64,000 nt of DNA from Escherichia phage BEU50. The position numbers and the translations under genes were made by a program. How positions within the stretch are numbered: position 1 is the stretch's first letter; the number at the start of each line of letters is the position of its first letter. This document shows, piece after piece, positions 1 through 24,100 of the stretch. The notes under the pieces are model-generated. The model did not search any database. It was not told where the DNA came from and saw nothing but the letters and a program-made list of their open reading frames with translations. The stretch lies in the sequence record OM632671.1; one strand, given 5' to 3'.

Positions 1-161
1 TTAATCCTGATTTAGTTGTTGTACAGAAAAACTGGACCGAATTTTTATGCTACACTGAAGTGGTTTACGTTTACGAAAAACTCGGCGATGAAATGCCTAT
101 CTATGGTATCTTCCGTGAAATCACTGAAAACGGTACAACTTATTGGAAGGAAACTTACTAA
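1..161 (+). CDS. 3' end of unidentified upstream gene (partial; start lies outside window)
   Basis: Open frame from window edge to TAA at 159-161; stop overlaps next ATG (TAATG). Confidence 0.45.
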
Positions 162-574
162 TGGCTAATAAATTCCGCGTTAACTCATGGTACCAATTTA
201 AAGATAAACGTGCCCAAGAAGAGTTTATTAAAGACCACACTGATAATGGGATTTATGCACGACGTCTTGGCATGGAACCATTTAAAGTATTAGATGTTGA
301 CCATCTTGGTCGTCCTACTAAAATTGTGACATCTACTGGCATGGTTGGATACGCAACAGGCGGTGATATCCTTGATGAAAACTTTATCTGGCTCTCCACG
401 AATGAAGCAGAGTTCTTTGACGAAGTTGGAAATCCATATCAAGAGTCTAAAGAGCAAGATTCTGGTGAACTTGACGAATTGTCTGAATTTCCGGTGATGA
501 CGATTACTATCGAAAATAACGACCAGGCATGGTCTTTGTATCAAATGTTGAAAGCTCACTTTAAGGAACAATAA
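161..574 (+). CDS. hypothetical protein (137 aa)
   Basis: Same frame as ORF-track 143..574 (TTG start); ATG at 161 overlapping upstream stop preferred; no recognisable domain. Confidence 0.55.
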
Positions 575-753
575 TGCCGTTATACGACTATAAATGTCAA
601 TCTGAAGATTGTGGTCATGAATATGAAAAAATTAAAAGAATTTCTGAACGAGAAAACGATGTTTGCCCTGAATGTCATCGTCTGTCTACTCGTCGGGTTT
701 CTGCTCCTAAACATGTGAACGGTGGTTTTTACGACTTACTTAAGAAGGGTTAA
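574..753 (+). CDS. small zinc-ribbon protein, FmdB-like (59 aa)
   Basis: Not in ORF track (<60 aa); [18 protein letters not shown]...VCPECH with two Cys pairs; ATG overlaps preceding stop (TAATG). Confidence 0.5.
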   Translation: MPLYDYKCQSEDCGHEYEKIKRISERENDVCPECHRLSTRRVSAPKHVNGGFYDLLKKG

Positions 754-755
754 TT

Positions 756-1181
756 ATGGCTTTTAAAGGTTTTGAAGTTGGTAAGAAATATCGTATTATC
801 AAAGGACAAGAAGATAATTTCTTGAGAATTCTTAATACGACTGGTAAACGTCTTAATACTAATCTGCATACTACTTTATTGTCCAAAGATTTTATTGTGG
901 AAGAGATGATTGGTTACGGTGTTTCGATGATTGCTGTAGAAGCCGTAGGCGATTATGGCCGAACTATTCATAGTATGCAAGGTGATATTCTGCTTTATGG
1001 TGCAGAATTTAAATTCTTTGAAGAAGTTCCGGAACCAGATACAGCTGTCGATTTCAAAAAAGGCTCTATAGAATTTGTTGATGGTTCGGTGATCGTATCA
1101 GGCGATGTGGTCATTACAGTTAAAAGTGAACAAGGGCGTTTAGCTGCAATTGATGCACTTCAGAAAATTAAATTTAAATAA
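756..1181 (+). CDS. hypothetical protein (141 aa)
   Basis: ORF track; tightly packed upstream of gene 39; no recognisable domain. Confidence 0.55.
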   Translation: MAFKGFEVGKKYRIIKGQEDNFLRILNTTGKRLNTNLHTTLLSKDFIVEEMIGYGVSMIAVEAVGDYGRTIHSMQGDILLYGAEFKFFEEVPEPDTAVDFKKGSIEFVDGSVIVSGDVVITVKSEQGRLAAIDALQKIKFK

Positions 1182-1199
1182 GGGCTTAGGCCCTTTTTG
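1181..1199 (+). terminator. rho-independent terminator candidate
   Basis: AGGGC-TTAG-GCCCT hairpin followed by TTTTT immediately after stop at 1181. Confidence 0.5.
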
Positions 1200-1222
1200 C
1201 TTTAGATTTTGGATGATAGAAT
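1196..1222 (+). promoter_or_regulatory. MotA-type middle promoter candidate for gene 39
   Basis: TTTGCTTTA MotA-box-like element, 12-nt spacer, TAGAAT -10, about 22 nt before ATG 1245. Confidence 0.4.
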
Positions 1223-1244
1223 ACCTTCATAACGAGGAGACAAC

Positions 1245-3065
1245 ATGATTAAAAATGAAATTAAGGTATTGTCAGATGTAGAACATATTAAGAAACGTAG
1301 TGGTATGTATATTGGTTCTTCTGCTAAAGAAGCACATGAGCGTTTTTTGTTTGGTAAATATCAACAAGTTGAATATGTTCCTGGTCTGGTTAAATTAATC
1401 GATGAGATTATTGACAACTCGGTTGATGAAGCTATTCGTACATCATTTAAGTTTGCAAATAAAATTGATGTGCAAATTAAAAATAATCAAGTTTCGGTGG
1501 AAGATAACGGACGTGGTATTCCTCAAGGTTTAGTTACCGACCAAACGGGTGAACAAATTCCTGGGCCTGTAGCAGCCTGGACTATTCCAAAGGCTGGTGG
1601 TAACTTTGGTGATGACTCTGAACGCAAGACTGGTGGTATGAACGGTGTAGGGAGTAGTTTAACTAATATCTTCTCTACGTTGTTTACAGGCATCACGTCA
1701 GATGGCGAAAATGAAATCACTGTTAACTGTTCAAACGGAATGGAAAACAAATCATGGTCTTCTAAGAAATCTAAAGGTAAAGGCACTAAAGTAATCTTCA
1801 CTCCTGATTTCTCTTCATTTGAAGAGCATAATTTATCTCAAATTTATTTAGATATTACTTTAGACAGACTTCAAACATTGGCAGTCGTTTATCCTGATAT
1901 CAAGTTCACATTTAATGGTAAAAAGGTTGATGGTAATTTTAAACGATTTGCTAAACAATTTGGTGAAGATAACATCATTCAAGAAAATGATAAAGTCTCT
2001 ATAGCATTCACAACATCACCAGATGGCTTCCGTCATTTAACTTATGTGAATAACATCCATACTAAAAATGGTGGCCATCATGTTGAATGTGTAATGGATG
2101 ATATCTGTGAACATCTTTTGCCGGGTATTAAAAAGAAATATAAGGGTATTGAAGTCACTAAAGCTCGTGTTAAAGAATGCCTCACAATGTTGATGTTTAT
2201 TAGAGACATGAGCAACATGCGTTTTGATTCTCAGACTAAAGAACGTTTAACGTCAACGTATGGTGATATTCGTAATCATATCCAATTAGATGCTAAGAAA
2301 ATTGCTCAGGCACTTCTTAAAAACGAAGCCTTGATTATGCCTATTGTTGAAGCAGCATTAGCTCGTAAATTGGCAGCAGAAAAGGCTGCAGAAACTAAAG
2401 CAGCTAAAAAGGCGACTAAAGCTAAGGTTCATAAGCATATTAAAGCTAACCAATGTGGTAAAGATGCAGATACGACATTGTTTTTAACAGAAGGTGATTC
2501 GGCAATTGGTTATCTCATTGATGTTCGTGACCGTGAACTACACGGCGGATTCCCATTACGTGGTAAGGTGATGAATAGCTGGGGTATGTCATATGCTGAT
2601 ATGATGAAGAACAAAGAGCTCTTTGATATCTGTGCTATCACAGGTCTTATTCTTGGTGAAAAGGCAGAGAATACGAACTATCGTAATATTGCAATTATGA
2701 CCGATGCCGATCATGACGGTCTTGGAAGTATCTATCCAGCTTTGCTTGCTTTCTTTAGTAATTGGCCTGAATTGTTTGAACAAGGACGTATTCGCTTTGT
2801 TAAAACGCCTGTAATTATTGCACAAATTGGCAAAACTCAAAAATGGTTTTATACTGTAGCTGAGTATGAAGAAGCTAAAGATACACTGCCTAAGCATAGT
2901 ATTCGATACATCAAGGGATTGGGCTCACTTCAGCGAGATGAATATAAAGAAATGATTCAAAACCCTGTGTACGACGTAGTTAAACTTCCTGAAAATTGGA
3001 AAGAACTATTTGAAATGCTCATGGGTAACGACCCTGAACTCCGTAAAGATTGGATGCTAGGATAA
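1245..3065 (+). CDS. 39: DNA topoisomerase II large subunit, ATPase (uninterrupted 606-aa form)
   Basis: GHKL ATPase motifs DEIIDNSVDEA and EDNGRGIP; T-even gp39 family; 606 aa, i.e. not split into 39 and 60. Confidence 0.9.
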   Translation: MIKNEIKVLSDVEHIKKRSGMYIGSSAKEAHERFLFGKYQQVEYVPGLVKLIDEIIDNSVDEAIRTSFKFANKIDVQIKNNQVSVEDNGRGIPQGLVTDQTGEQIPGPVAAWTIPKAGGNFGDDSERKTGGMNGVGSSLTNIFSTLFTGITSDGENEITVNCSNGMENKSWSSKKSKGKGTKVIFTPDFSSFEEHNLSQIYLDITLDRLQTLAVVYPDIKFTFNGKKVDGNFKRFAKQFGEDNIIQENDKVSIAFTTSPDGFRHLTYVNNIHTKNGGHHVECVMDDICEHLLPGIKKKYKGIEVTKARVKECLTMLMFIRDMSNMRFDSQTKERLTSTYGDIRNHIQLDAKKIAQALLKNEALIMPIVEAALARKLAAEKAAETKAAKKATKAKVHKHIKANQCGKDADTTLFLTEGDSAIGYLIDVRDRELHGGFPLRGKVMNSWGMSYADMMKNKELFDICAITGLILGEKAENTNYRNIAIMTDADHDGLGSIYPALLAFFSNWPELFEQGRIRFVKTPVIIAQIGKTQKWFYTVAEYEEAKDTLPKHSIRYIKGLGSLQRDEYKEMIQNPVYDVVKLPENWKELFEMLMGNDPELRKDWMLG

Positions 3066-3862
3066 TGAATTATCGTAAAATTTATGATAAACTTATCGCT
3101 GCGGCTAAAAACCGCAGCATTATTCCTAATTATACTGAGACACATCATATATTGCCAAAATCTATGGGTGGGAGTAATGATAAATCAAATCTAGTTAAAA
3201 TGACCCCTAGAGAGCATTTTATCGCCCATTTATTGCTTTATAAAATTCATAAGAACCGTTCTATGCTTATGGCTATTAGAGCTTTTTACATGGGAGCTAG
3301 AAATTCTAGAGATTATGATTGGCTTAAACAAGAATTCTCTAAAGAGCACTCTAGATTTATGAAAGAATGGATTGCTAAAAACGGCAACCCATTTAAAGGT
3401 AAAAAACATACTAAAGCAACAAGAGAATTAATGTCACATATTGCTTCACAACGTATAGGCGAATTAAATCCATTTTATGGTAAAACTCATACGCAAGAAG
3501 CAATAGATAAAATAATACAGGCCAACAAGTTATCTTGGGAGAATGGGCGAAAAGCACCTGTAAAAACAAAAGAACACCAGGATAAAATAACTAAATCAAG
3601 AATGGAAACATTTAAAACAAAAGGATTTAAACCATACACTCCTAGGTCGGAAGAAACTAAAGCTAAGACTAGAGAGTTGTATAAATCTAAATATGAAAGA
3701 AGGCCTATAAGAATCACAAGTGTAAAAACAGGTGAAACTATTGATTTTAACTATCTTTATGAATTAAGAGAGTATTTAGATATAGGGTCTTCTAATATAT
3801 TGAAAGCATTAAATAATCCTAACAGAACCTGCAAAGGTTATAAAATGTGTTGGATGTCCTAA
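3065..3862 (+). CDS. HNH homing endonuclease (mob-type, free-standing)
   Basis: HNH motif HHILPKSMGGSNDKSNLV; repeated GK-HT helix motifs; ATG at 3065 overlaps gp39 stop; ORF-track start 3050 is TTG. Confidence 0.8.
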   Translation: MNYRKIYDKLIAAAKNRSIIPNYTETHHILPKSMGGSNDKSNLVKMTPREHFIAHLLLYKIHKNRSMLMAIRAFYMGARNSRDYDWLKQEFSKEHSRFMKEWIAKNGNPFKGKKHTKATRELMSHIASQRIGELNPFYGKTHTQEAIDKIIQANKLSWENGRKAPVKTKEHQDKITKSRMETFKTKGFKPYTPRSEETKAKTRELYKSKYERRPIRITSVKTGETIDFNYLYELREYLDIGSSNILKALNNPNRTCKGYKMCWMS

Positions 3863-3890
3863 GCTCCTTCGGGAGCTTCATTTTAATTTT
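3862..3890 (+). terminator. rho-independent terminator candidate
   Basis: AGCTCC-TTCG-GGAGCT hairpin followed by T-rich tract. Confidence 0.55.
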
Positions 3891-3904
3891 AATAAGGCTT
3901 AATT

Positions 3905-5005
3905 ATGAAAGTTATGTTTATCCCATCTCGTGCAGTCCCATTTAATCCTGACCGTGTACAAGGTGGTCTTGAAGCGGTTCATTTGAACGTGTTGAAATAT
4001 TTAGTTTCTATCGGTGCCGATATTGATTATATCGGCTTTGATAATGACACGTTTGGTGACTGGAAAGTTACACACCATCCTGTTGGTCATCTGACTAAAT
4101 TCAGTCTAGGTATGAGTTATACTATGGCTCGTAAGATTGTTGAACTAGCCGGCATCCATGAATACGATTTTGTTGTTACTATGGAACCGACTAAACTAAC
4201 CGTTCAGGCAATTAAAGACGCAGGTCTCTCTAAAGTTCATAAGAATTTTATGGCAACACCATTTGAACCAGTATCTCGTGGCATTGTTCAAATTTGGGAC
4301 CAGACTATTCAAATTCATAAGAATGGCGGTAAGAGTTATGCTCCTACTAAAGCCTTCCGTGAATTTGAACGCAAATATTGTTATATGACTTCAGGTCTGA
4401 CTGACAAAATCGATTATGATTATTGGCGAGCAAATCCGTTGTTTGAAGCCGAAGATTATCCGGTTATTTGTTTGACTGAAAAGCCAGAAGTTCTCCCGGC
4501 AACTGATTTGATTATTAGTGCTCAACGTTATGACACTAAGATGCGTCGCACTGATGTTGCTCTTGAAGCAATTAAAGCACTAGGCGAAAATGGTGTAGGA
4601 TACTGTCCTAGTAAATGGGCACCACCAGCTAAATATCCTGTTATTATTGATGCTCCACACAGTGAAATCATGGAACGTCTTAAAACAGCTAAAGCACTTA
4701 TTAATACGTGTCCTGACACAGGTACGGTAGAGAATAGTTCTATTGAAGCCATCTCTAAAGGTGTCCCTGTAATCCAGTTAGTTTTTAAGGATTATCCTCA
4801 TGCGACATTTGAATACGACCCAGATACTGTGCGTGTAGAAATTGATTCCTCTACTCCTAAGAAAGAAGTAGTTGCGCTTTACACAAAAGCTGTATTAGAA
4901 TTCACTGACACATACGAAGCTCGAGTTAAACGTGCTGAAGCAGTATGGAAGAAGTATAATCGAGATGCAGTTGTTGCGATGTGGGATAAAATCTTCACAG
5001 CGTAA
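3905..5005 (+). CDS. hypothetical protein, possible GT-B-fold glycosyltransferase (366 aa)
   Basis: ORF is solid; function weak: N-terminal MKVMFIPSR...GGLE and C-terminal ENSSIEAISKGVPVI resemble GT4-type motifs. Confidence 0.6.
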   Translation: MKVMFIPSRAVPFNPDRVQGGLEAVHLNVLKYLVSIGADIDYIGFDNDTFGDWKVTHHPVGHLTKFSLGMSYTMARKIVELAGIHEYDFVVTMEPTKLTVQAIKDAGLSKVHKNFMATPFEPVSRGIVQIWDQTIQIHKNGGKSYAPTKAFREFERKYCYMTSGLTDKIDYDYWRANPLFEAEDYPVICLTEKPEVLPATDLIISAQRYDTKMRRTDVALEAIKALGENGVGYCPSKWAPPAKYPVIIDAPHSEIMERLKTAKALINTCPDTGTVENSSIEAISKGVPVIQLVFKDYPHATFEYDPDTVRVEIDSSTPKKEVVALYTKAVLEFTDTYEARVKRAEAVWKKYNRDAVVAMWDKIFTA

Positions 5006-5097
5006 ATCCTGAATAGCCTGAGGCACTATTACACATAAGATGATAGATTATATGGTCTTTAGTAATAGTGCCCTAGGAATCTACTGAAGAGAATATT

Positions 5098-5298
5098 ATG
5101 AGAACATATAACGTGGACTTGGAACTTTTTGATAAAGCAGTGCTCCGGGAATTCCGGCTTATCCAAAGATTTTTTGATATCGAATCAGCAGAGTCCTTTA
5201 AAGAACGCTTTAAAGAAATTCGATATAAAATACAAACCGATACAGCTACTAAAGAAGAACTTCTTGAAGTAGCAGAAATTTTTAAACGTAACTTGTGA
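5098..5298 (+). CDS. hypothetical protein (66 aa)
   Basis: ORF track; immediately upstream of rIIA. Confidence 0.45.
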   Translation: MRTYNVDLELFDKAVLREFRLIQRFFDIESAESFKERFKEIRYKIQTDTATKEELLEVAEIFKRNL

Positions 5299-5310
5299 TG
5301 AGAGAAAAAC

Positions 5311-7368
5311 ATGATTATCGAAACGGCTAAAGAAACGATTATTGGTTCTGGTGGTAAGAGCACAGCATTCACTATTCAAGGCAATAGCAAAGTTTATAAG
5401 ATTTTGTCTAATGACCTTTATACAAACAAAGAATTGGCTTGTGTACGTGAATTAATCACAAACTGTATCGATGGACAAATTCTTAATGGTTGCACTGATA
5501 AGTTTATTGTTCAGGCTCCAGGTCGTTTAGACCCACGTTTTGTAGTTCGAGACTTTGGTCCTGGTATGAGTGATTTCACCATTCGAGGTAATGACGAAGA
5601 GCCAGGAATCTATAACTCATATTTTGCTTCAACTAAAACATCGAGTAATGATTTCATTGGTGGATTCGGACTCGGCTCTAAAGCTCCATTAGCATATACT
5701 GATACGTTTAACATTACTTCTTATCATAATGGTGAAGTTCGTGGTTATGTAATTTATCAAGATGACAGTGGTCCACAAATTAAGCCAACCTTTGTAGATA
5801 AGATGGGCCCTGATGACCGTACGGGTGTAGAAGTAGTTGTGCCTGTTAACCCGGAAGATTTTGAAAAGTTCGCATCTGAAATTGCGTATGTTATGCGTCC
5901 TCTCGGCGATATTGCAGAAGTTCGTGGTGTTAAAGATATCAAATACTTCCCGGAATTCGATGATGTTTATTTAGCCAAGGAAGCTCCATGGGGTGAACGT
6001 GGTAATATCATGGCTGTTTATGGTGGTATTGTATATCCAATCGGAAGTGTTATTAAAGAACAAACATGGATGATGACGCGATGCACTACAGCTTATATCA
6101 AATTCCCTATGGGTGAACTAGATGTAGCCCCGTCTCGTGAAGCATTGTCATTTGATAAACGTACAGTAGCAAATATTCATAAACGTGTTGCAGAAATTGA
6201 TGCAAAATTATTTGCTGAAGATTCTAAGAAATGGATTGATTGTGAATATCCACGTCATGTATTCCGTGAAATCGATTCTCTTGGTTACTCTGCTCGTAAA
6301 TACATGGAAAAAGCCGGTTCTAATATTGAATCACTGAAATATTCTAAAGAACAACTAACTTATTCTGAGTTGTACAAACGTTTTAAAATGGGACCTGAAT
6401 GGTGCAACCTTGGCGTTGTATATGATATCGTTTCAGATCCACGACTTCGTCGTATTCGTGAAAGCGGAAGCTCGTCTGCAACTATTTCAATTAATAGCCT
6501 GCTAGGTATTAGTCGTAAGCATATTGATATTGTTATTGACGATGTGAAAGGCCGCGTACCAATGATGCGTGCTCTGAACGATGCTTTGACTTCCACCGAT
6601 GCATCAACACTCGTTGATAAGGTTCCTTCCGGACGGGGTAGTAGCGTATTATTCATTAACCCGGAAGATGAAGTTGCAATGAAACTTCTGGAACGATTAA
6701 AGGTTATTTTCGCTGGTGATAGCCTTAAATTTTATAAGACCTCTGAAATTCTTGCATTAGTTAAACCATGGATTGAAGTTAAAGAACGTTCATCGCAGCC
6801 TCGTCCTAAATCCCCAAGTGCTCATCGGTTCTTTAAGAATGAAAACGATGTTTGGGTATCAGAAGATCTCTTTATTCCGGCCGGTAAAGCTGATGAGATT
6901 CAAGGTTATGTTGTAATTCGTAATCGTTCTAACGCTGAATGTCTTGACGCAGATAAAGGTTGGTTGAACTATGATTCTAATTTCTTGACTCGTATTGCTG
7001 ATTTGTCAGGTATTAAAGAGTTCACTGTAGTCCGTCCACAGATTGCTAAGAAAGTTCGTAAACTTGGTGAAGTAGAATGCTTGTTCGAAAAATCAATTAA
7101 TGACTATATTACGCTAATTGATAAAGTGGATTATGATGAGTATGTATCACCAAGTCGTAGAGCACAGCCTTATTTGAATCATATTACTCGTAACGAAGAG
7201 CTTAACTTCCTTAGTAAGTATTTTAGCTCTAAGAACAAAGAAATCAGTAAAGACTTTGCAAAACTCTCAACAGTAAATAATCGCTGGGGATGGAATCGAT
7301 TCGCAGGTGCTGATAACAGAGACCTGAACAGGAAGTTAGAATTGTGCTTAAAGAGGACTCTTTTGTAG
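5311..7368 (+). CDS. rIIA: rIIA membrane-associated protein with GHKL ATPase domain
   Basis: ELITNCIDG and RDFGPGM GHKL boxes; N-terminus typical of T-even rIIA; 685 aa (T4 rIIA recalled as about 725 aa). Confidence 0.85.
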
Positions 7369-7619
7369 ACCCAGAAATTTTCTACGGTTTGCGTGCCCGT
7401 GAAATTGAAATTGAGCCACAACCTACAGTTAAAATTGAAGGTGGTCAACACCTGAACGTTAACGTTCTGCGTCGTGAAACTCTGGAAGATGCAGTTAAGC
7501 ATCCGGAAAAATATCCGCAATTGACTATCCGTGTATCCGGTTATGCAGTTCGCTTTAACTCTCTGACTCCGGAACAGCAGCGCGACGTTATCGCTCGTAC
7601 CTTTACCGAGAGTTTGTAA
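7344..7619 (+). CDS. autonomous glycyl radical cofactor-like protein (GrcA/YfiD family)
   Basis: C-terminal glycyl radical motif [29 protein letters not shown]; no in-frame ATG (GTG at 7344); 3' half is GC-rich with host-like codons. Confidence 0.8.
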
Positions 7620-7840
7620 TGGCAAAGATAATTATTGAAGGTTCTGAAGATGTGCTAAATGCTTTCGCCGAGTGGTTTAGTAATTCAGGTGAACAACAAT
7701 TTAATGAAGCGTGGAATATGGGTGATATTGATGGAATTTATCCTACGACAGAAATTTCTGTTCAGGGATATGGCATTCATGAACCTATTCGTTTAGTTGA
7801 ATACGATTTATGTACTGGCGAGGAAGTCAAATATGATTGA
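7619..7840 (+). CDS. hypothetical protein (73 aa)
   Basis: ORF track; ATG overlaps preceding stop. Confidence 0.5.
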   Translation: MAKIIIEGSEDVLNAFAEWFSNSGEQQFNEAWNMGDIDGIYPTTEISVQGYGIHEPIRLVEYDLCTGEEVKYD

Positions 7841-8099
7841 AGATATTAAGGGTTATAAACCACATACCGACGAAAAAATCGGTAAAGTAAATGCTATTAA
7901 AGACGCTGAAGTTCGTTTAGGACTTATCTTTGATGCTTTATACGATGAATTTTGGGAAGCATTTGATAGCTGTGAAGATGATGAACTCGCGAAGAATTAC
8001 GCCGAAAGCCTCGATCAGTTAACTATTGCTAAAACGAAACTCAAAGAAGCAAGTATGTGGGCTTGCCGTGCTGTGTTCCAACCAGAGGAAAAATACTAA
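7833..8099 (+). CDS. hypothetical protein (88 aa)
   Basis: ORF-track frame 7797..8099 trimmed to ATG 7833, which overlaps upstream stop. Confidence 0.45.
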
Positions 8100-8377
8100 T
8101 GGCTCAATTAAGCGCAGGGTTTGGTTATGAGTATTATACTGCCCCTCGTCGTGTATCTGTTGCTCCTAAGAAAATTCAAAGTCTTGATGATTTCCAGGAA
8201 GTAGTCCGTAACGCTTTCCAGGACTATGCACGCTATCTTAAAGAAGATTCACAGGACTGTCTCGAAGAAGATGAAATTGCTTACTATACGCAGCGTCTTG
8301 AACAGCTCAAAAATCTACATGAGGTTCGTGCCGAAGTTTCAAAGTCTATGAATAAATTGATTAGATTTAAAGAATAA
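8099..8377 (+). CDS. hypothetical protein (92 aa)
   Basis: ORF-track frame 8057..8377 trimmed to ATG 8099 (TAATG overlap). Confidence 0.45.
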
Positions 8378-8379
8378 CT

Positions 8380-8409
8380 GTTTACTTTTCCTCTTGACTG
8401 TGGTATAAT
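8380..8409 (+). promoter_or_regulatory. T4-type early promoter candidate (regB)
   Basis: GTTTAC at 8380-8385, TATAAT at 8404-8409, 18-nt spacer, then AAGAGGAG Shine-Dalgarno. Confidence 0.5.
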
Positions 8410-8436
8410 TTTTCTATCAGTTAAGAGGAGAATAAC

Positions 8437-8898
8437 ATGACTATCAACACAGAAGTTTTTATCCGTCGAAATAAGCTTCGTCGTCACTTTGAGTCGGAGT
8501 TTCGTCAAATTAACAATGAGATTCGTGAGGCATCAAAAGCAGCAGGGGTCTCATCGTTTCATCTAAAATATTCTCAGCATCTTCTTGATCGTGCAATTCA
8601 ACGGGAGATTGATGAGACATATGTTTTTGAATTATTCCACAAAATAAAAGACCATGTTTTAGAAGTTAATGAATTCCTGAGTATGCCTCCGCGTCCTGAC
8701 ATTGATGAGGATTTTATTGATGGGGTTGAATACCGTCCTGGACGTTTAGAAATCACAGATGGAAATCTTTGGCTTGGATTTACAGTTTGTAAACCTAATG
8801 CGAAGTTCAAAGACCCGTCGCTTCAATGCAGGATGGCAATTATCAATAGTCGTCGTTTACCAGGAAAGGCTTCTAAAGCAGTAATTAAAACTCAATGA
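8437..8898 (+). CDS. regB: RegB site-specific endoribonuclease
   Basis: 153 aa, N-terminus MTINTEVFIRRNKLRRHFESEF matches T4 RegB family. Confidence 0.85.
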   Translation: MTINTEVFIRRNKLRRHFESEFRQINNEIREASKAAGVSSFHLKYSQHLLDRAIQREIDETYVFELFHKIKDHVLEVNEFLSMPPRPDIDEDFIDGVEYRPGRLEITDGNLWLGFTVCKPNAKFKDPSLQCRMAIINSRRLPGKASKAVIKTQ

Positions 8899-8905
8899 GG
8901 TAAGC

Positions 8906-9451
8906 ATGAGAAAAGCACTACTCGCTGGTCTATTGGCCATTTCAATGATGGCACATAGCTCCGAGCATACTTTCAGTAATGTCCAACTCGATAACATGCG
9001 TTACGCGTATCAATTCGGGGAACAATTTTCTAAGGATGGAAAATATAAAACACACAAAAACATCCACAAGAGCGGATTGGGTCATATAATGGCTGCTATT
9101 TTGTGGCAAGAAAGCTCTGCCGGAGTTAATTTAAAATCTAAACCAAAGCATCACGCCTACGGAATGTTCCAAAATTATTTGCCTACTATGCGAGCGAGAG
9201 TTAAGGAACTTGGTTATAATATGACCGATGCTGAAATAAAAAGAATGTTGAATAAACGATCCAATTCAGCTTCCTGGGCGTACATTGAACTTTCTTATTG
9301 GTTAAATATACATAAGGGCGATATAAGAAAAGCAATATCCTCTTATAATTCGGGATGGAATGTTAAAGCAGGTTCTAAATATGCTTCTGAAGTCCTAGAA
9401 AAGGCTAATTACCTTAAAAATAATAAACTTTTGGAAATAGTAAATGACTAA
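8906..9451 (+). CDS. secreted/periplasmic protein with signal peptide (vs.1-like position)
   Basis: N-terminal signal peptide MRKALLAGLLAISMMAHS; WQESS motif; positional analogue of T4 vs.1. Confidence 0.6.
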   Translation: MRKALLAGLLAISMMAHSSEHTFSNVQLDNMRYAYQFGEQFSKDGKYKTHKNIHKSGLGHIMAAILWQESSAGVNLKSKPKHHAYGMFQNYLPTMRARVKELGYNMTDAEIKRMLNKRSNSASWAYIELSYWLNIHKGDIRKAISSYNSGWNVKAGSKYASEVLEKANYLKNNKLLEIVND

Positions 9452-9785
9452 AATTTTGGTTTTATGTATAGGATTAATTTCATTTTCTGCGTTAGCAGAT
9501 ACATCATATACTGAAATTAGAGAGTATGTAAACCGTACTGCAGCGGATTATTGCGGGAAAAATAAAGCATGCCAAGCTGAATTTGCGCAGAAATTAATAT
9601 ATGCATATAAAGACGGAGAAAGAGATAAATCAAGCAGATACAAAAATGATACATTGTTAAAACGATATGCTAAAAAGTGGAATACCTTAGAATGTTCAGT
9701 TGCGGAGGAGAAAGATAAAGCCGCTTGTCATTCAATGGTTGACCGTTTAGTAGATTCTTATAATCGAGGATTGAGTACTAGATGA
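9444..9785 (+). CDS. small secreted protein with signal peptide
   Basis: Signal peptide MTKILVLCIGLISFSALA; Cys-containing mature part. Confidence 0.5.
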   Translation: MTKILVLCIGLISFSALADTSYTEIREYVNRTAADYCGKNKACQAEFAQKLIYAYKDGERDKSSRYKNDTLLKRYAKKWNTLECSVAEEKDKAACHSMVDRLVDSYNRGLSTR

Positions 9786-10261
9786 TTGTAAAATATATCA
9801 AGGGCGATATTGTCGCCCTATTTCTTCAAGGTAATATTATTGCGCACGGGTGCAATTGCTTCCACACAATGGGCTCTGGCGTAGCAGGTCAATTAGCAAG
9901 AGCCTATCCCAAAATTTTAGAAATAGATAAAACCACTACCGAGTACGGTTCTCGTGATAAATTAGGCGATATGTCTATTGTTTTTAAACATAGTCCTACG
10001 GGATTTGGTATATGCTATAACCTGTATACACAATACGAACCGGGTCCTAATCTTGATTATGGTGCTTTAGTAAACTGCATGATAGAATTAAATCTACAGG
10101 CAGAAACCCTTTTGTTTAAACCAGTAATTTACATTCCACGCATAGGTTGCGGTATTGCTGGTGGTGATTGGGATAAGGTTTCTAAATTAATCGACATGTT
10201 TACTCCTGATATTGATTTAATAGTGGTGGATTATGAAAGTACATTACCCGCATCCGTTTGA
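9782..10261 (+). CDS. macro-domain protein (ADP-ribose binding/processing)
   Basis: AHGCNCFHTMGSGVAGQLA and IPRIGCGIAGGDW resemble macro-domain Gly-rich phosphate-binding loops. Confidence 0.6.
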   Translation: MIVKYIKGDIVALFLQGNIIAHGCNCFHTMGSGVAGQLARAYPKILEIDKTTTEYGSRDKLGDMSIVFKHSPTGFGICYNLYTQYEPGPNLDYGALVNCMIELNLQAETLLFKPVIYIPRIGCGIAGGDWDKVSKLIDMFTPDIDLIVVDYESTLPASV

Positions 10262-10445
10262 TCCTAAAAACAAAGTGGAAATTATTCGTCAATGGGAACG
10301 CATTTGCCGTACTAAATGCCCAATTAATAGTCCACATGATGTAGATAAAGACTATATTGGAACATTCGTTGAATATACCTTTATTGATAGGAAAGGTCGT
10401 AAACAACATGTAGAAGAATATTGTTTAAAGGTTACATGGTTATGA
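10233..10445 (+). CDS. hypothetical protein (70 aa)
   Basis: ORF track only. Confidence 0.4.
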   Translation: MKVHYPHPFDPKNKVEIIRQWERICRTKCPINSPHDVDKDYIGTFVEYTFIDRKGRKQHVEEYCLKVTWL

Positions 10446-10648
10446 GCCAAACTAGTATTCTTAAAAATGCCCATTGTGAAAAGTGTAAGTGGCCGATTGT
10501 TTTTGCTTTATGTAATGATGAAATGGCTTGTGATTTCGATTATTGGTGCTATTGTTCTAATAAAGGATGCATCAATCATAAAGGTGAAGGATTTTATTCA
10601 GGATTTTATCCTTATCCTGATTTCGTTAAAGAAGGTAAACCGAAATGA
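10421..10648 (+). CDS. Cys-rich hypothetical protein
   Basis: ORF track; multiple CxxC pairs; start uncertain. Confidence 0.4.
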   Translation: MFKGYMVMSQTSILKNAHCEKCKWPIVFALCNDEMACDFDYWCYCSNKGCINHKGEGFYSGFYPYPDFVKEGKPK

Positions 10649-11009
10649 ATAGTTTTGAGTTACAATATGAAGTGTTACGTGAGCTTGATAATTTAATTGA
10701 ACTCGCTGTCAATAAAGGTTTTGCCATTGGAATCGGTCAAAAAGATACTGGTCATTTAACTATGGAAATATTTAAGCAAAAGCGAATTATTTTAAAACTC
10801 CTGGAAATTAATATATGAGTCTGAGTAAAGAATAAAAAGATAAATTGTTTGAGCTTATCCATGAACTTCTAGATGAGCATGCAGAAGCAAACACCTTTTA
10901 TGATGAATACGGCCCGCTATCTCCCGAACAGCAAGAAGAATTTGCTGATCGGTTTGATAAGAAAGAAAACGAATTAATAGCTTATGTGAATATGCTTTAA
11001 GAAGGTGAT

Positions 11010-11591
11010 ATGGCGAGTTTAATTTTTACTTACGCAGCAATGAATGCTGGAAAATCTGCTTCTCTTTTGACTGCTGCACATAATTATAAAGAACGCGGAA
11101 TGAGTGTATTAGTTCTTAAGCCTGCTATTGATACTCGCGATTCTGTCTGTGAAGTCGTTTCTCGCATTGGAATTAAGCAGGAAGCGAATATTATTACAGA
11201 TGATATGGATATTTTCGAGTTCTATAAATGGGCTGAAGCACAAAAAGATATTCATTGCGTATTTGTAGATGAAGCTCAGTTTTTAAAAACTGAACAGGTG
11301 CATCAATTAAGTCGAATTGTTGATACATATAATGTTCCTGTTATGGCTTATGGATTAAGGACTGATTTCGCTGGAAAATTGTTTGAAGGTTCTAAAGAAC
11401 TTTTAGCGATTGCAGATAAACTTATTGAACTAAAGGCAGTTTGTCATTGCGGCAAAAAAGCGATTATGACAGCTCGATTAATGGAAGATGGAACACCAGT
11501 TAAAGAAGGTAATCAAATCTGTATTGGTGATGAAATTTATGTTTCTTTGTGTAGAAAACATTGGAACGAATTAACTAAAAAGCTCGGTTAG
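11010..11591 (+). CDS. tk: thymidine kinase
   Basis: 193 aa; P-loop AAMNAGKS; matches recalled T4 Tk essentially end to end. Confidence 0.92.
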   Translation: MASLIFTYAAMNAGKSASLLTAAHNYKERGMSVLVLKPAIDTRDSVCEVVSRIGIKQEANIITDDMDIFEFYKWAEAQKDIHCVFVDEAQFLKTEQVHQLSRIVDTYNVPVMAYGLRTDFAGKLFEGSKELLAIADKLIELKAVCHCGKKAIMTARLMEDGTPVKEGNQICIGDEIYVSLCRKHWNELTKKLG

Positions 11592-11633
11592 TGCAAAAGT
11601 TATAAATAGGTTTATCTAACTAAAGGGGTATAT

Positions 11634-11846
11634 ATGCTACAATTAACTGAAAAGCAACTTCGCAATCTTACTGTTCTTCAATTAGATGAAATTCGTAGGG
11701 AAGTTGGAAATATCATTTCAGCTTTGCGTCGAGAAGTATCACTCAACCAATCTCCGGCAGACTATACTAGATTGCGAAATTTTGAAAAATACCTTGATAA
11801 AGTTAAGGCCGTGCATCGGCATAAAGTAAATACAGGACAAAAATGA
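11634..11846 (+). CDS. hypothetical protein (70 aa)
   Basis: ORF track; SD AAAGGGG upstream. Confidence 0.5.
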
Positions 11847-11858
11847 TAGGAGGCCTTT

Positions 11859-12152
11859 ATGGCCTTAAAAGCAACGGCACTATTTGCCATGCTAGGATTA
11901 GCGTTTGCTTTATCTCCATCGATTGAAGCGAATGTCGATCCTCATTTTGATAAATTTATGGAATCTGGTATTAGACACGTTTATATGCTTTTTGAAAATA
12001 AAAGCGTAGAATCATCTGAACAGTTCTATAGTTTTATGCGAACGACTTATAAAAATGACCCGTGCTCTTCTGATTTTGAATGTATAGAGCGAGGCGCGGA
12101 GATGGCACAATCATACGCTAGAATTATGAACATTAAATTGGAGACTGAATGA
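11859..12152 (+). CDS. rI: RI lysis-inhibition regulator (antiholin), signal-anchor protein
   Basis: 97 aa with N-terminal signal-anchor MALKATALFAMLGLAFALS; size and position next to tk match T4 rI. Confidence 0.7.
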   Translation: MALKATALFAMLGLAFALSPSIEANVDPHFDKFMESGIRHVYMLFENKSVESSEQFYSFMRTTYKNDPCSSDFECIERGAEMAQSYARIMNIKLETE

Positions 12153-12535
12153 AATTCAGCGACTTTTCACAAAGTGGAAAACCTTCAAAGGCAGATGAAT
12201 ACTTAGGTTTATTAATGGCTGCACAAGCTTATTTTCATTCTGCGCATTTTGAAACTAAAAGTTATGCTAGACACAAAGCATACGATTTTATTTTCTCCGA
12301 GTTGCCAGATTTGATTGATAAATTTGGTGAGCAATATTTGGGGTATTCTGGTAGAAAATACACACCTTCAATTCCAGATGCTAGTAAACTTCCTACCGAC
12401 ACAATTAAAATGATTGATCGCATACTAGACCAATCTAACAGCATTTATAAAGAAATGCCTCCAGCCATTCAAAGCACGATAGATGATATCACTGGGATGT
12501 TTTATCAGAGTAAATATCTTCTTTCCCTCGAATAA
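12149..12535 (+). CDS. hypothetical protein (128 aa)
   Basis: ORF track; overlaps rI stop. Confidence 0.55.
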
Positions 12536-12539
12536 CGTT

Positions 12540-12563
12540 AGTCTCCTTCGGGAGACTTTTTTC
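12540..12563 (+). terminator. rho-independent terminator candidate
   Basis: AGTCTCC-TTCG-GGAGACT hairpin followed by TTTTTT. Confidence 0.6.
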
Positions 12564-12630
12564 ATTTTACCGGTTTACTTTCCATTTGAGCTGTGATACT
12601 ATACAACCATCGGATAAAGAGGAGAACATC

Positions 12631-12819
12631 ATGAAAATTGAAGCACTTAATCAAGAAGGAAATATCTACGTCATCATTAATGGTGATTTTTTCGTCGACA
12701 TGGATGAAGTTACCAGTGAAGAACTTGTAGAACTTCTTAAGAAACGTTATAATATGTGTGATGAAGTTGCAACTCACATGGCGTGTGCAATATTCTCTCT
12801 TTCATATGTGGTGGAATAA
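12631..12819 (+). CDS. hypothetical protein (62 aa)
   Basis: ORF-track frame trimmed to ATG 12631 preceded by AGAGGAG. Confidence 0.5.
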
Positions 12820-13022
12820 TGAAAACTGAAAAGCAAGCGGATAAAATTAAGGAATTAGTGGCTTCAATTCGTAAAGCAGATGAAGAGCTGATTGACTTTG
12901 CTTGGTATTCATCGGGTATTTCGAATAAAGGCATTAAAGACTTTGAAACTAAAGTTGATAATGCTTTAGAAGCGTTAGATATGTTTCTTGATGAAATTAT
13001 CGATCATAATACGAGAGTTTAA
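12819..13022 (+). CDS. hypothetical protein (67 aa)
   Basis: ATG overlaps preceding stop; begins MKTEKQ. Confidence 0.5.
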   Translation: MKTEKQADKIKELVASIRKADEELIDFAWYSSGISNKGIKDFETKVDNALEALDMFLDEIIDHNTRV

Positions 13023-13024
13023 GT

Positions 13025-13219
13025 ATGCTAACACGTGAACAGTTTGAAAAAATCATTAAATTAGCACGTGATGTTGAAATAGATTCATATCAATTAGCAG
13101 TTGAGCATTGTGAAGGATATTCATACGATGGTATAGAATCAGCTAAAAGGGATTTGGATAAATCTAAAGCTAAGTTAGTCCAATATCTTGAAATGATTAG
13201 GTGGAATAATGAAAACTGA
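13025..13219 (+). CDS. hypothetical protein (64 aa)
   Basis: ORF track. Confidence 0.5.
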   Translation: MLTREQFEKIIKLARDVEIDSYQLAVEHCEGYSYDGIESAKRDLDKSKAKLVQYLEMIRWNNEN

Positions 13220-13381
13220 AAAGCAGATGTTTTTAATGAAACTAATTGAAGAATATGCTAATGCAGTTTCTGACTATGAGCGTTCTTCTCGGGAAAGAGG
13301 TACAGCTTTCGCCAAAGAAGAAATGAAAATCATGGTTGATGCTCACACAAAGCTTCAGAATTTTATTGAAAACAACATTTA
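13208..13381 (+). CDS. hypothetical protein (57 aa), paralogous start module
   Basis: Not in ORF track; begins MKTEKQ with the same 25-nt start region as the 12819 gene. Confidence 0.4.
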
Positions 13382-13384
13382 ACG

Positions 13385-13414
13385 GTTTACAAGTTGGCAA
13401 GGTTATGGTATAGT
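13385..13414 (+). promoter_or_regulatory. T4-type early promoter candidate
   Basis: GTTTAC then about 18 nt then TATAGT. Confidence 0.4.
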
Positions 13415-13549
13415 AATCTTGTCAACTGTCAAGGAGAAGAGAATGAAAGTTTTGTTTGTTGTGTATGTAATGATTCAATATAATTACCCAATGTTTACTT
13501 ATAATCTGGTGAACAACATTATTGATATTATTCAAAGGAGTATGTAATT

Positions 13550-13780
13550 GTGAGTGAGTCGAAGAGAATCAATATGAAACGATTAGTATTAGAAGTTAGT
13601 CCGCTTTTTGGTGAATTGGCTATAGAAAAAGTAAATAACATGTATCGTTTGACGCAAGAAGACGATATGCTATATTTTACGCCTAGTGAAATCATTCATT
13701 TAACCCAAATTGAATATCCTTATACTGATAAAATAGTAAGTATCAATGATGAGCACAAAATTCATTGCTCGTTTGATTGA
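13550..13780 (+). CDS. hypothetical protein (76 aa, GTG start)
   Basis: ORF track; AAGGAG upstream. Confidence 0.45.
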   Translation: MSESKRINMKRLVLEVSPLFGELAIEKVNNMYRLTQEDDMLYFTPSEIIHLTQIEYPYTDKIVSINDEHKIHCSFD

Positions 13781-13870
13781 AGTTGAAGCCCAAATTGCAG
13801 AACACACCAAATTGTTAAAAGCTCTTAATGCAAAAGCAAATGGTTTACGTAATGCTATTGAGGTATTGAA

Positions 13871-14185
13871 ATGAAAAAGCGTCTATTAGAAGACATTGCA
13901 GCTTCAAGTAATTCCAGTTTAATTAAAATTATTATGGCCGGTGAAGAAGACGATCTGGAAATGCGTGGAAAGATTTATGGTTGTGATGATTATAGCAGCC
14001 CTATTAATTGGGATTCTGTAATGGTCATGGTTGAACGTCGCGAAAGGGCTTCTAAAAACGTTCCTAATTGCCCTGAATGTGGAACTGAACAGGTGCAATT
14101 AGTCCATTGGCAGACTAATAATCTTCGTTATAAATGTCGCCATTGTAAACACCGATTTGACCGAGAAGAAAATGACAAAGCGTAA
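13871..14185 (+). CDS. zinc-ribbon hypothetical protein (104 aa)
   Basis: CPECGTEQ ... CRHCKHRF four-Cys pattern. Confidence 0.55.
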
Positions 14186-14414
14186 AGAATATATGGAGAC
14201 CGCCGAAAAGGCAGTCCGTGAATTAGCAATAGCTTATTATAATGAACACGGTAAATTTCCTGATAGATACAGCGTGCTTAAATCTGCTTTAACTCGTTCA
14301 TATAAAAATATGCTATCAGAAGTAAGTGATATTATATACAAACATAAAGAACAAACGGGCCAAAGTCTTGATTACGACGAGACTTTTAAACAAGTACTAG
14401 GAATTAAGGAATAA
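14172..14414 (+). CDS. hypothetical protein
   Basis: ORF-track frame 14157..14414 (TTG) trimmed to first ATG. Confidence 0.4.
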
Positions 14415-14415
14415 T

Positions 14416-14679
14416 ATGTTTAAAGTATATGGTTATGATAGCAACATCCATAAATGTGTGTATTGCGATAATGCAAAACGTCTTTTGACCGTGAAGAAAC
14501 AGCCGTTTGAATTTATCAACATTATGCCGGAAAAAGGTGTTTTTGATGATGAGAAAATCGCTGAGCTTCTGACTAAACTAGGTCGTGATACTCAAATCGG
14601 CTTAACAATGCCTCAGGTATTTGCTCCTGATGGAAGTCATATTGGTGGATTTGACCAATTGCGGGAATACTTTAAATGA
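14416..14679 (+). CDS. nrdC: glutaredoxin/thioredoxin (T4 NrdC type)
   Basis: 87 aa, CVYC redox motif; matches recalled T4 NrdC. Confidence 0.9.
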   Translation: MFKVYGYDSNIHKCVYCDNAKRLLTVKKQPFEFINIMPEKGVFDDEKIAELLTKLGRDTQIGLTMPQVFAPDGSHIGGFDQLREYFK

Positions 14680-14891
14680 TTCTCGAAGGAACTGATTATA
14701 TCCATGATTACCGCGGAAGCGCGGTATATGTAGGTGATGAAGTTGCAGTTTACTACGGGTATGGAACTTTGATGACAGCCAAGGTTATTCAAATTAAAAA
14801 TAATCGTGCTAAACTCGAAGTTTATTATTCTAACGGCGAAAAGTCTATTTCTAAGTGGAAATACGGCGATTGTATGGTCAAACTGGGGTAA
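14676..14891 (+). CDS. hypothetical protein (71 aa)
   Basis: ORF track; overlaps nrdC stop. Confidence 0.5.
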   Translation: MILEGTDYIHDYRGSAVYVGDEVAVYYGYGTLMTAKVIQIKNNRAKLEVYYSNGEKSISKWKYGDCMVKLG

Positions 14892-14893
14892 AT

Positions 14894-15064
14894 ATGATTT
14901 ACGATATTAGTGCAGCAAGAGCTCCATCAATGGTTGCTATTCCAGCTGAAGAATTAGATCGTCTTCATAAAATTGAAGAACTTCTGTGGGAAATTGAATC
15001 TGATTTGCCATCAGGATTAGAATCCTGGATTGATTATGAAGAACTTAATAAGCTTCGGGGTTAA
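14894..15064 (+). CDS. hypothetical protein (56 aa)
   Basis: ORF-track frame trimmed to ATG 14894 following upstream stop. Confidence 0.4.
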   Translation: MIYDISAARAPSMVAIPAEELDRLHKIEELLWEIESDLPSGLESWIDYEELNKLRG

Positions 15065-15186
15065 ACCCTGGTGGGCGGCTAGATGGGAAACTGTAGAGCC
15101 AGAGCCGGAAGAACCGGTTTACACTGATGAAGAAACAGTATATAATGAACCAACGATAAATGACTTAATTGATATGGAGATGGGAC

Positions 15187-15672
15187 ATGATTACAGTAGA
15201 TAAGTGGTTTAGAATTAATCGTGTTGATACAGGGCTATGTAATTACTGGCCGGAACTTAGTGCAGGTACTGTCTTTAAAGTTCGTGAACTTGCAAAAGAA
15301 TGTGAAGATGATATAGAACCTGATACTGGAATTATTGAAATTGAACTTTCTGATGGAAAGATTATTAACATCTATGATAAGCCAATTACGTATTGGTGCT
15401 TGTGGAATACTGAATCCGTTGAAAATGGCGAAATTGAAGAAGTTGTAGAGAGAACTAGCCAAGATGCTCAGAAGCCTAAAGCCGCTTTTCAAGGTGAACG
15501 TATTTCATACGCATTAGCTAAATTAGCTGCACAAGAAAATAACGATGGTTATGAAGGAAATTTAATGCAAGCTGCCGCAGAGTACATTGAATGGCTTGAA
15601 ACTCAAATTTCTTTTTCTGACCAAATGATTCGGCAATATAAGCGATTGCATCAAATGTTTTACAATACTTGA
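15187..15672 (+). CDS. pin: hypothetical protein, possibly protease inhibitor Pin (161 aa)
   Basis: ORF-track frame trimmed to first ATG gives 161 aa, the T4 Pin length; position between nrdC and gene 49. Confidence 0.45.
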   Translation: MITVDKWFRINRVDTGLCNYWPELSAGTVFKVRELAKECEDDIEPDTGIIEIELSDGKIINIYDKPITYWCLWNTESVENGEIEEVVERTSQDAQKPKAAFQGERISYALAKLAAQENNDGYEGNLMQAAAEYIEWLETQISFSDQMIRQYKRLHQMFYNT

Positions 15673-15708
15673 AAAAACTCAAAATTCTTTTTCTGACAAG
15701 GCATTTTA

Positions 15709-15885
15709 ATGAAAACCGAATTGGTTTATACTGAAAAGTTAAATGGCGGTAAGGTTTGGAAACTTTTTATTAAAGGACATTCTACGGACCCTCATATGAC
15801 CACTTGCGTAGGAACCTATTCTCGTCCTACTAAAAAGATGATTCGACAGTATAAACGATTGCATCGAATGTTTTACAATACTTAA
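15709..15885 (+). CDS. small hypothetical protein (58 aa) sharing its C-terminus with upstream gene
   Basis: Not in ORF track; ends ...MIRQYKRLHRMFYNT, near-duplicate of the last 15 aa of the 15187..15672 product. Confidence 0.35.
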   Translation: MKTELVYTEKLNGGKVWKLFIKGHSTDPHMTTCVGTYSRPTKKMIRQYKRLHRMFYNT

Positions 15886-15925
15886 ATAATAAATACCCTT
15901 ATCTATTTAAGGTAAGGGTTTTATT

Positions 15926-16399
15926 ATGTTATTGACTGGCAAATTATACAAAGAAGAAAAACAAAAATTTTATAATGTACAAAACGGTAAATGCTTAATT
16001 TGCCAACGAGAACTAAATCCTGATGTTCAAGCTAATCACCTTGACCATGACCATGAATTAAATGGACCAAAAGCAGGAAAGGTACGTGGATTGCTTTGTA
16101 ATCTCTGCAATGCTGCAGAAGGTCAAATGAAGCACAAATTTAATCGTTCTGGCTTAAAGGGTCAAGGTGTTGATTATCTTGAATGGTTAGAAAATTTACT
16201 TACTTATTTAAAATCCGATTACACCCAAAATAATATTCACCCTAACTTTGTTGGAGATAAATCAAAGGAATTTTCTCGTTTAGGAAAAGAGGAAATGATG
16301 GCCGAGATGCTTCAAAGTGGATTTGAATATAATGAATCTGACACCAAAACACAATTAATAGCTTCATTTAAGAAGCAGCTTAGAAAGAGTTTAAAATGA
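15926..16399 (+). CDS. 49: endonuclease VII (Holliday junction resolvase)
   Basis: 157 aa; zinc-binding CLIC...C..C; matches T4 gp49 family. Confidence 0.88.
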   Translation: MLLTGKLYKEEKQKFYNVQNGKCLICQRELNPDVQANHLDHDHELNGPKAGKVRGLLCNLCNAAEGQMKHKFNRSGLKGQGVDYLEWLENLLTYLKSDYTQNNIHPNFVGDKSKEFSRLGKEEMMAEMLQSGFEYNESDTKTQLIASFKKQLRKSLK

Positions 16400-17217
16400 A
16401 TGTAGTATATAAACTATCATTTATTAATAGAATTAATGCTAAAACCCCACCATATTATTACATTGGAAGTAAAACCAATTGCACTTTTGATGGAACGAAT
16501 ATTATTGATAAAAATGGTAAATTTTATTATTCGTCTTCGTCATCTTCTGAATTTCAAAAAGCCTTATTGAAAGAAACGCCGAAAGTTGAAATATTATATT
16601 TTCAATTAGTCGGAGATGAACAAATAACTAGCATTGAAGCTGAATTTCAAAAGAATATAGAAAAAGATGTATGGAATAAAGAGTATTTTAATTTAGCATA
16701 TGCTGATGGCAAATTTACGACATATGGTATTTCTCCTTCTAAAGAAACTAGAGAAAAGCAATCAATAACCATGATTAAAAGAAATCGTAATAAAGGCAAA
16801 AATCATGGATTTTATGGAAAGCATCATACTAATTTAGCTAGAAAGAAAATATCAGAAGCTTCTAAAAAATACTGGAAAGAAAATCCACATCGTGGATTTT
16901 CGCATACAAAGGAAGCTAAAATTAAAATTGGAATTTCATCTTCTATCAGGCATAAAGGAAGTGGAAATCCGATGTATGGTGTAAAACCTTGGAAAACTCC
17001 GAGCGCAATTAAATCTGGTACTTGTATATTATGGTTAAAATACGCAGAAATTTTATATGATTATTTAAGTCCAGATTTTAAAAGTAAATCATCTATTTTT
17101 GCGGATTTAAACTTACCGAAATTTAGAATTGATAATTTCATCAAAAGGTTTAAAATGGGTTGGAACCCATATTTAGACGAAGAATTTCAAAAGGATAAAT
17201 TAGAATTATGTCTTTAG
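16396..17217 (+). CDS. GIY-YIG homing endonuclease (seg-like, free-standing)
   Basis: N-terminal VYKL...PYYYIGS GIY-YIG module; downstream basic helix repeats; start and stop overlap neighbouring genes. Confidence 0.75.
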   Translation: MNVVYKLSFINRINAKTPPYYYIGSKTNCTFDGTNIIDKNGKFYYSSSSSSEFQKALLKETPKVEILYFQLVGDEQITSIEAEFQKNIEKDVWNKEYFNLAYADGKFTTYGISPSKETREKQSITMIKRNRNKGKNHGFYGKHHTNLARKKISEASKKYWKENPHRGFSHTKEAKIKIGISSSIRHKGSGNPMYGVKPWKTPSAIKSGTCILWLKYAEILYDYLSPDFKSKSSIFADLNLPKFRIDNFIKRFKMGWNPYLDEEFQKDKLELCL

Positions 17218-18205: not shown

Positions 18206-18340
18206 TCCTGAGTCATCTTTTGTGAAAATTGTTTTATCTTTTAAGTTTATAGCCAATTCACCTTCGGCTAATACTGAAGCAGCAGGACGTTGACCTGCAG
18301 TTTTGCTTCTTTTAAATTGTATTTGTTTTAAAGTAGCCAT
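18206..18340 (-). pseudogene. 37: distal long tail fibre gp37, N-terminal 44-codon fragment
   Basis: Minus-strand [45 protein letters not shown] matches T4 gp37 N-terminus, then diverges and stops within 6 codons. Confidence 0.7.
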
Positions 18341-18348
18341 AAGTCCTC

Positions 18349-18999: not shown

Positions 19000-19022
19000 A
19001 GTATGCCCATTTATTTTAATAT

Positions 19023-19030
19023 TATTTATA
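19023..19030 (-). promoter_or_regulatory. late promoter TATAAATA (gene 36)
   Basis: TATTTATA on plus strand, 24 nt upstream of gp36 ATG on minus strand. Confidence 0.5.
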
Positions 19031-19055
19031 AAGAAAAAAGGAGCCCGGCGGCTCC
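19031..19055 (-). terminator. rho-independent terminator candidate after gene 35
   Basis: GGAGCC-CGGC-GGCTCC hairpin followed on minus strand by TTTTTTCTT. Confidence 0.55.
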
Positions 19056-19061
19056 CTCAGT

Positions 19062-20177: not shown

Positions 20178-20185
20178 AATACCTC

Positions 20186-24055: not shown

Positions 24056-24089
24056 TCTCCCGGGCTCCTATTGTGTTTTCAATAATAAG

Positions 24090-24097: not shown

Positions 24098-24100
24098 CTT

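Follow-up and report, generated by a model that had tools for sequence, protein, structure and literature searches.

A junction of rIIA with vs.6 in Escherichia phage BEU50 probably reflects a chimeric sequence of Mosigvirus and Tequatrovirus parts

The 64,000-nt stretch of Escherichia phage BEU50 DNA analysed here (hereafter, the window) is best explained as a chimeric or concatenated sequence drawn from a Mosigvirus and a Tequatrovirus, rather than as the genome order of a replicating phage, a reading to which we give a probability of about 0.78. The point at which rIIA meets a GrcA-like gene (J1) would then be an end-to-end, non-homologous join between unrelated places in two T-even genomes of different genera. 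Such a join could have originated by mis-assembly, from pasted contigs, as an in-silico composite, or in a chimeric long-read consensus, in which case members of both genera would have been present in the source sample or data set. That we are dealing with an artefact, as opposed to a join present in a physical DNA molecule, is what we infer from the sequence pattern. The contact between rIIA and its neighbor is no new biological feature. The genes on both sides, namely rIIA, vs.6 (Y06I), regB, and tk, are all known. Nothing works at the junction itself, and a scan for promoters and terminators around it returned nothing above the shuffled expectation.

The preliminary description of this DNA had placed a breakpoint between non-adjacent blocks at this site, and alignment puts the switch precisely at 7346/7348. 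Compared base by base, the window follows the left parent as far as 7346 and the right parent from 7348 on, with the intervening base (7347, a C) matching neither reference and the microhomology amounting to 0-1 nt. The features at the join are as follows:

5311..7346, plus strand: rIIA of the Mosigvirus (RB69/a20) type, codons 1-678 plus 2 nt
7346..7348: J1, blunt join of Mosigvirus rIIA' to Tequatrovirus 'vs.6
7347..7368, plus strand: read-through of the rIIA frame into vs.6 DNA, out of frame, giving a 7-residue tail (LKRTLL) and a stop
7347..7619, plus strand: vs.6 (T4 Y06I, a GrcA homologue), codons 31-120 plus the stop

To the left, positions 1..7346 form a single 7,347-nt alignment to Mosigvirus a20 at 98.5% identity; to the right, 7348..13766 is 96-98% identical to Tequatroviruses as against 71-88% to the corresponding region of a20 and RB69. 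The whole vs.6-nrdD block shows the same two ranges of identity. The latter values also led us to reject the idea that a20, the closest relative of block 1, carries a T4-like vs.6-nrdD segment, which would have allowed a single parent. When the segment 6300..8400 was compared by megablast with 50,697 phage records, 743 were matched, none of them over 80% or more of the query, and none (0/743) spanned J1, every aligned record or contig either ending at 7346 or beginning at 7348. The part from 7348 to 8400 is 97-98% identical to Tequatrovirus records, in which it is annotated as an ‘autonomous glycyl radical cofactor’ followed by three hypothetical proteins. Thus, at 7346/7348 the lineage changes at a join that has no independent support, which is what characterizes a chimera.

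On the rIIA side, the ORF at 5311..7368 (plus strand) encodes 685 aa and overlaps by 25 nt a GrcA-like ORF devoid of an ATG (7344..7619, 91 aa, GTG start), in line with the earlier description. The gene is 98-99% identical to those of a20 and RB69 (99.0% and 98.8%, respectively, over 6300..7346 by megablast), and residues 1-678 of the protein are 99% identical to both, the alignment ending at ...NRKLELC. The RB69 match ends at position 179 of that record, in which rIIA occupies 1..2214 (2214 nt), and the missing 3' 178 nt correspond to 59 C-terminal residues, a segment conserved even in T4. The shortfall of about 40 aa estimated earlier was therefore too small: relative to the 737-aa RB69-type RIIA, 59 residues are lost and 7 out-of-frame ones are added. 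Full-length RIIA lysis inhibitors measure 725-737 aa and retain the conserved C-terminal segment, which that of the window lacks, and in eight contigs coding for a protein identical to that of ORF003c, which lies upstream, rIIA encodes 737 aa in 8/8. We conclude that the apparent shortness of rIIA comes from truncation of the gene, to which a nonsense tail of 7 residues has been added.

The window retains the usual upstream genes of the RB69 and T4 rIIA-rIIB locus (39, a NUMOD3 homing endonuclease, ORF003c, and rIIA.1) but differs from that locus in lacking both the conserved C-terminal 59 residues and an adjacent rIIB. In a20, RB69, T4, and all natural contigs that continue past rIIA, rIIB comes next, whereas in the window it does not follow rIIA on the same strand and, as had been stated, is absent from the entire 64 kb. 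A further comparison is offered by the classical T4 rII deletions, such as r1589, in which the end of rIIA is fused to the downstream cistron. As in those mutants, the 3' end of rIIA is gone and its frame enters the next DNA. However, the classical deletions do not reach beyond the rII locus of a single genome and yield a viable phage, whereas the partner DNA in the window belongs to another genus and to a place about 60 kb distant, and three more joins remove essential genes. Related phages in which an equally short rIIA precedes this gene, which would have spoken against a breakpoint, were looked for among the 50,697 phage records, in natural contigs, and by exact look-up of the 685-aa fusion protein, and none is on record there.

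The gene on the other side of the join is also incomplete. The Tequatrovirus match begins at 7348, corresponding to nt 92 of vs.6 (363 nt in SHFML-26), and the first 91 nt are missing; correspondingly, tblastn places Vs.6 residues 31-120 at 7347..7616 with 96.7% identity (97% to both T4 and SHFML-26). The fragment has thereby lost its own ATG, its ribosome-binding site, and its first 30 codons, and the GTG with which the 91-aa ORF begins is borrowed from rIIA-side DNA. The C-terminal glycyl-radical domain is kept, with a Pfam Gly_radical match (PF01228) of 67.7 bits against a cut-off of 22.2 and a RVSGYAV motif conforming to RVxG[FWY]. A complete GrcA gene, with its own start and N-terminal region, encodes about 120-127 aa; this ORF has neither. 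As a refinement of the earlier observation that the N-terminal half of bacterial GrcA is lacking, what is lost is the first 30 codons of the 120-aa Vs.6, whose N-terminal part in any case resembles bacterial GrcA only weakly. Eight contigs with a protein identical to Vs.1 provide the natural counterpart: in 8/8 the Gly_radical gene encodes 120 aa and is preceded by vs.7 and vs.8, while its downstream neighbors are regB and, before it, the 73-, 88-, and 92-aa genes seen in the window. In short, the GrcA-like ORF without an ATG represents the 3' three-quarters of vs.6 (Y06I), opened by a GTG that happens to be in frame.

Downstream of the fragment lie the following genes:

7619..7840, plus strand: vs.5 homologue, 73 aa; in every natural context the Gly_radical gene is followed by this 73-aa gene
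7833..8099, plus strand: vs.4 homologue, 88 aa, with the Pfam Acb2/Tad1 hairpin domain (PF24729, 71 bits)
8099..8377, plus strand: vs.3 homologue, 92 aa
8437..8898, plus strand: regB endoribonuclease, 153 aa
8906..10261, plus strand: vs.1, vs (valyl-tRNA synthetase modifier), and tk.4 (macro domain)
11010..12535, plus strand: tk (11010..11591), rI.1, rI (11859..12152), and rI.-1
About 14416..14679, same strand as rIIA: nrdC

The preliminary description had correctly listed regB, tk, rI, and nrdC downstream and had noted that in T4 this block normally lies about 60 kb away. The same holds in RB69 and a20: in all three phages vs.6 immediately precedes the series vs.5-vs.4-vs.3-regB-vs.1-vs-tk.4...tk-rI and lies some 60 kb away from rIIA. 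Since vs.6 adjoins the same block in these genomes, the regB/tk genes are its normal T4 neighborhood, and the only abnormal contact is that between rIIA and vs.6. Relative to T4 vs.6, the window thus shares the downstream neighbors vs.5-vs.4-vs.3-regB but differs in that the fragment has no vs.7 upstream and adjoins the rIIA of another genus. That RB69 and a20 keep a vs.6-regB-tk block of their own at the T4-like distance from rIIA is counted in favor of an artefact. As a separate observation, the vs.4 homologue, which in every natural context seen is the second gene after vs.6, matches the hairpin domain of Acb2/Tad1, a family of phage sponges for cyclic-nucleotide immune signals.

The anomaly extends well beyond J1. 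Mapping the window by local BLAST onto T4, RB69, a20, KAW3E185, SHFML-26, and SHFML-11 resolved it into five blocks from two genera, in which only the order of the blocks is abnormal (T4 coordinates are on the T4 minus strand):

1..7346: Mosigvirus, T4 6365->179, gene 39 ... rIIA'
7348..13766: Tequatrovirus, T4 63828->57624, 'vs.6 ... mobD.1'
13767..18206: Tequatrovirus, T4 49045->44354, 'nrdC.3 ... 49, NUMOD3 ORF, nrdD'
18207..25726: Tequatrovirus, T4 156676->149138, 37', 36, 35, 34 (minus strand); rnh, dsbA, 33, 59'
25727..about 30100: Tequatrovirus, T4 143081->138.8k, 'nrdA.2, nrdA.1, nrdA, nrdB exon 1, HNH-ORF intron
About 30.6 kb..64000: Mosigvirus, KAW3E185-like (96-99%), colinear, T4 down to about 109k

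The inference of a non-canonical order of T-even blocks is borne out by this map, with the amendment that there are five blocks instead of the four originally counted, owing to an additional join at about 13766. Each block is genuine natural phage sequence: mismatches to the nearest relatives fall mostly at the third codon position (4/3/34 at positions 1/2/3 in rIIA, 2/1/35 in nrdA, and 2/0/20 in the ligase gene), and the internal ORFs are intact. The same dominance of third-position mismatches rules out synthetic noise. A 100%-identical parent was sought for every block and found for none, the best matches being 98-99.4% identical.

At the right-hand end of the Tequatrovirus DNA, the switch back to Mosigvirus at about 29.0-30.6 kb is of a different kind. 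It is in register, and the stretch from about 29.0 to 30.1 kb is nearly identical in both genera. This looks like a natural homologous boundary, of the sort expected of a homologous crossover or of the co-conversion tract of intron homing. The region comprises the nrdB intron and its HNH endonuclease ORF (29264..30073), and nrdB exon 2 (about 30.2-30.6 kb) matches both references poorly. The nrdA|nrdB boundary (28.39-28.44 kb) was considered as a fifth join and rejected, since 493 records span it; it serves as a control for the search for spanning sequences given below. Elsewhere in the window, there are two ORFs with NUMOD3 motifs, at 16396..17217 (273 aa) and 3050..3862 (270 aa), both of which are probably free-standing homing endonucleases; the former sits between gene 49 and an intron-less nrdD, where T4 has no gene, and the latter just after gene 39, as in a20.

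Besides J1, three further joins interrupt the window:

13765..13767: J1b, mobD.1' (residues about 1-68 of 181) to 'nrdC.3 (residues 274-308 of 308)
18206..18207: J2, nrdD' (residues 1 to about 333 of 605, plus strand) to gene 37' (residues 1-45 of 1026, minus strand)
25726..25727: J3, gene 59' (residues 1-19 of 217) to 'nrdA.2 (residues 46-87 of 87)

All four lie inside genes and within 18 kb, cutting rIIA, vs.6, mobD.1, nrdC.3, nrdD, 37, 59, and nrdA.2. As at J1, the microhomology is 0-1 nt at J2 and J3, and it is at most 3 nt at J1b; inspection by eye revealed no restriction-site or ligation motif common to the four. About 8.6 kb of T4-type DNA is missing at J1b (T4 57623..49046, with nrdC.4-nrdC.11 and mobD), and segG, 32, frd.3-frd.1, frd, and td are missing at J3, td lying inside the T4 interval that is absent there. 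Across the whole window, no match was found to rIIB, denB, ndd, 52, motA, asiA, t, 38, 32, or frd; genes 32, 52, 37, motA, asiA, and t are regarded as essential in T4 genetics.

Sequences spanning these joins were searched for widely. Among the 50,697 phage records, none spans any of the four, while hundreds match each flank: the counts are 0/608 matching records at J1b, 0/873 at J2, and 0/518 at J3, as against the 493 that cross the natural nrdA|nrdB boundary. Megablast of PLSDB plasmids and of 5,426 E. coli genomes likewise yielded no join-spanning sequence. Exact scans for 30-32-mers across the joins found none in IMG/VR, JGI metagenomes, or GTDB genomes; these are weak negatives of limited power for T4-like DNA, as a within-block 34-mer was also absent from IMG/VR and a conserved 30-mer occurred in only 4 contigs. 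A natural mosaic boundary would be expected to lie between genes or in homologous sequence and to recur in other genomes, and none of the four joins has these properties. With four unique, blunt, gene-internal joins, a change of genus, and the loss of indispensable genes, the window would therefore not represent a replicating T-even genome.

Chimeric or concatenated contigs from mixed phage samples resemble the window in their abrupt switch of lineage, in their unsupported joins with genes truncated on both sides, and in the occurrence of several joins close to one another. They differ in that the window has neither a shared k-mer at its joins nor the N spacers that many scaffolders insert. 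Chimeras of De Bruijn graphs normally form via shared k-mers, and blunt joins without them argue against a classic graph mis-join from short reads; a chimeric long read, contigs that were pasted together, or a composite made in silico fit better. Some observations count against an artefact: the blocks are genuine, the first, third, and fourth of them retain the order and orientation that they have in T4, and the switch in the nrdB intron stays in register, which is what a real homologous crossover would produce. Should the chimeric reading hold, the case would become one of quality control, in which the source sequence is unfit as evidence on the gene order of T-even phages, on rII biology, or on a ‘short GrcA’, with the other non-canonical joins of the window falling under the same verdict.

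Those observations are also what sustains the best of the alternatives, a real but defective molecule produced by illegitimate recombination, of the end-joining or topoisomerase type, during a mixed infection or laboratory cross of a Mosigvirus with a Tequatrovirus, and then propagated by a helper or merely present in the sequenced DNA pool. The authentic blocks with their intact internal ORFs, the canonical order and orientation of blocks 1, 3, and 4, and the in-register nrdB switch would all suit it, as would the general habit of T-even phages, which recombine intensely and do yield deletions and duplications. Even so, we regard it as unlikely, because it needs four independent blunt gene-internal joins in 18 kb, because the essential 32, 52, 37, motA, and asiA are lost from their loci, and because no second example turned up in any collection searched. 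Marginally less probable is its fuller form, a physical, helper-dependent inter-genus hybrid that went through several illegitimate end-joinings and in which rIIA transcripts could give rise, by way of the fortuitous GTG, to a GrcA-like protein with a shortened N-terminus. A real join would be a record of illegitimate recombination at several sites between two T-even genera and of a defective hybrid genome, a matter of moderate interest to phage geneticists. A C-terminally truncated RIIA without RIIB would then be predicted from T4 genetics to give an rII phenotype, and the Vs.6 fragment, having no translation start of its own, could be made only from the GTG at 7344.

A viable rearranged T-even genome, with vs.6-nrdD moved beside rIIA and with rIIB, 52, 37, 38, t, 32, and others located outside the window, appears to us very improbable. 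Our view is limited to 64 kb, so that missing genes may sit elsewhere, and the window contains no internal duplication that would prove a mixture of two genomes. Against this, gene order is conserved in every relative examined, the inserted block and its left neighbor belong to different genera, and eight genes are destroyed, including nrdD and the tail-fibre gene 37, of which 45 of 1026 residues are left. Finally, the notion that the 91-aa ORF at 7344..7619 represents a genuine short form of GrcA whose translation is coupled to that of an rIIA that is shorter by nature is hardly tenable in spite of its in-frame GTG at 7344, an AGGA about 11 nt upstream, and a whole glycyl-radical motif, as its DNA is nt 92-363 of vs.6 at 97% identity, this identity ends abruptly at 7347/7348 where identity to rIIA begins, the natural copies are all 120 aa (8/8), and the arrangement occurs in no relative.

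Restoration of pyruvate formate-lyase (PFL) after its cleavage by oxygen has been validated by experiment for two ‘spare part’ proteins, Y06I and YfiD (PMC8683613, citing Wagner et al. 2001). Full-length Y06I is known to be activated by the PFL-activating enzyme and to rescue PFL cleaved by oxygen (PMC8683613). Over the last 189 nt of vs.6 (7435..7623 in the window), the gene shows 95-96% DNA identity to chromosomal grcA in 5,426/5,426 complete E. coli genomes. The C-terminal 60 residues of the 91-aa ORF are identical to E. coli GrcA, whereas the N-terminal part of phage Vs.6 is only weakly similar to the bacterial protein, a juxtaposition that suggests that the host gene was captured, or converted the phage gene, fairly recently.
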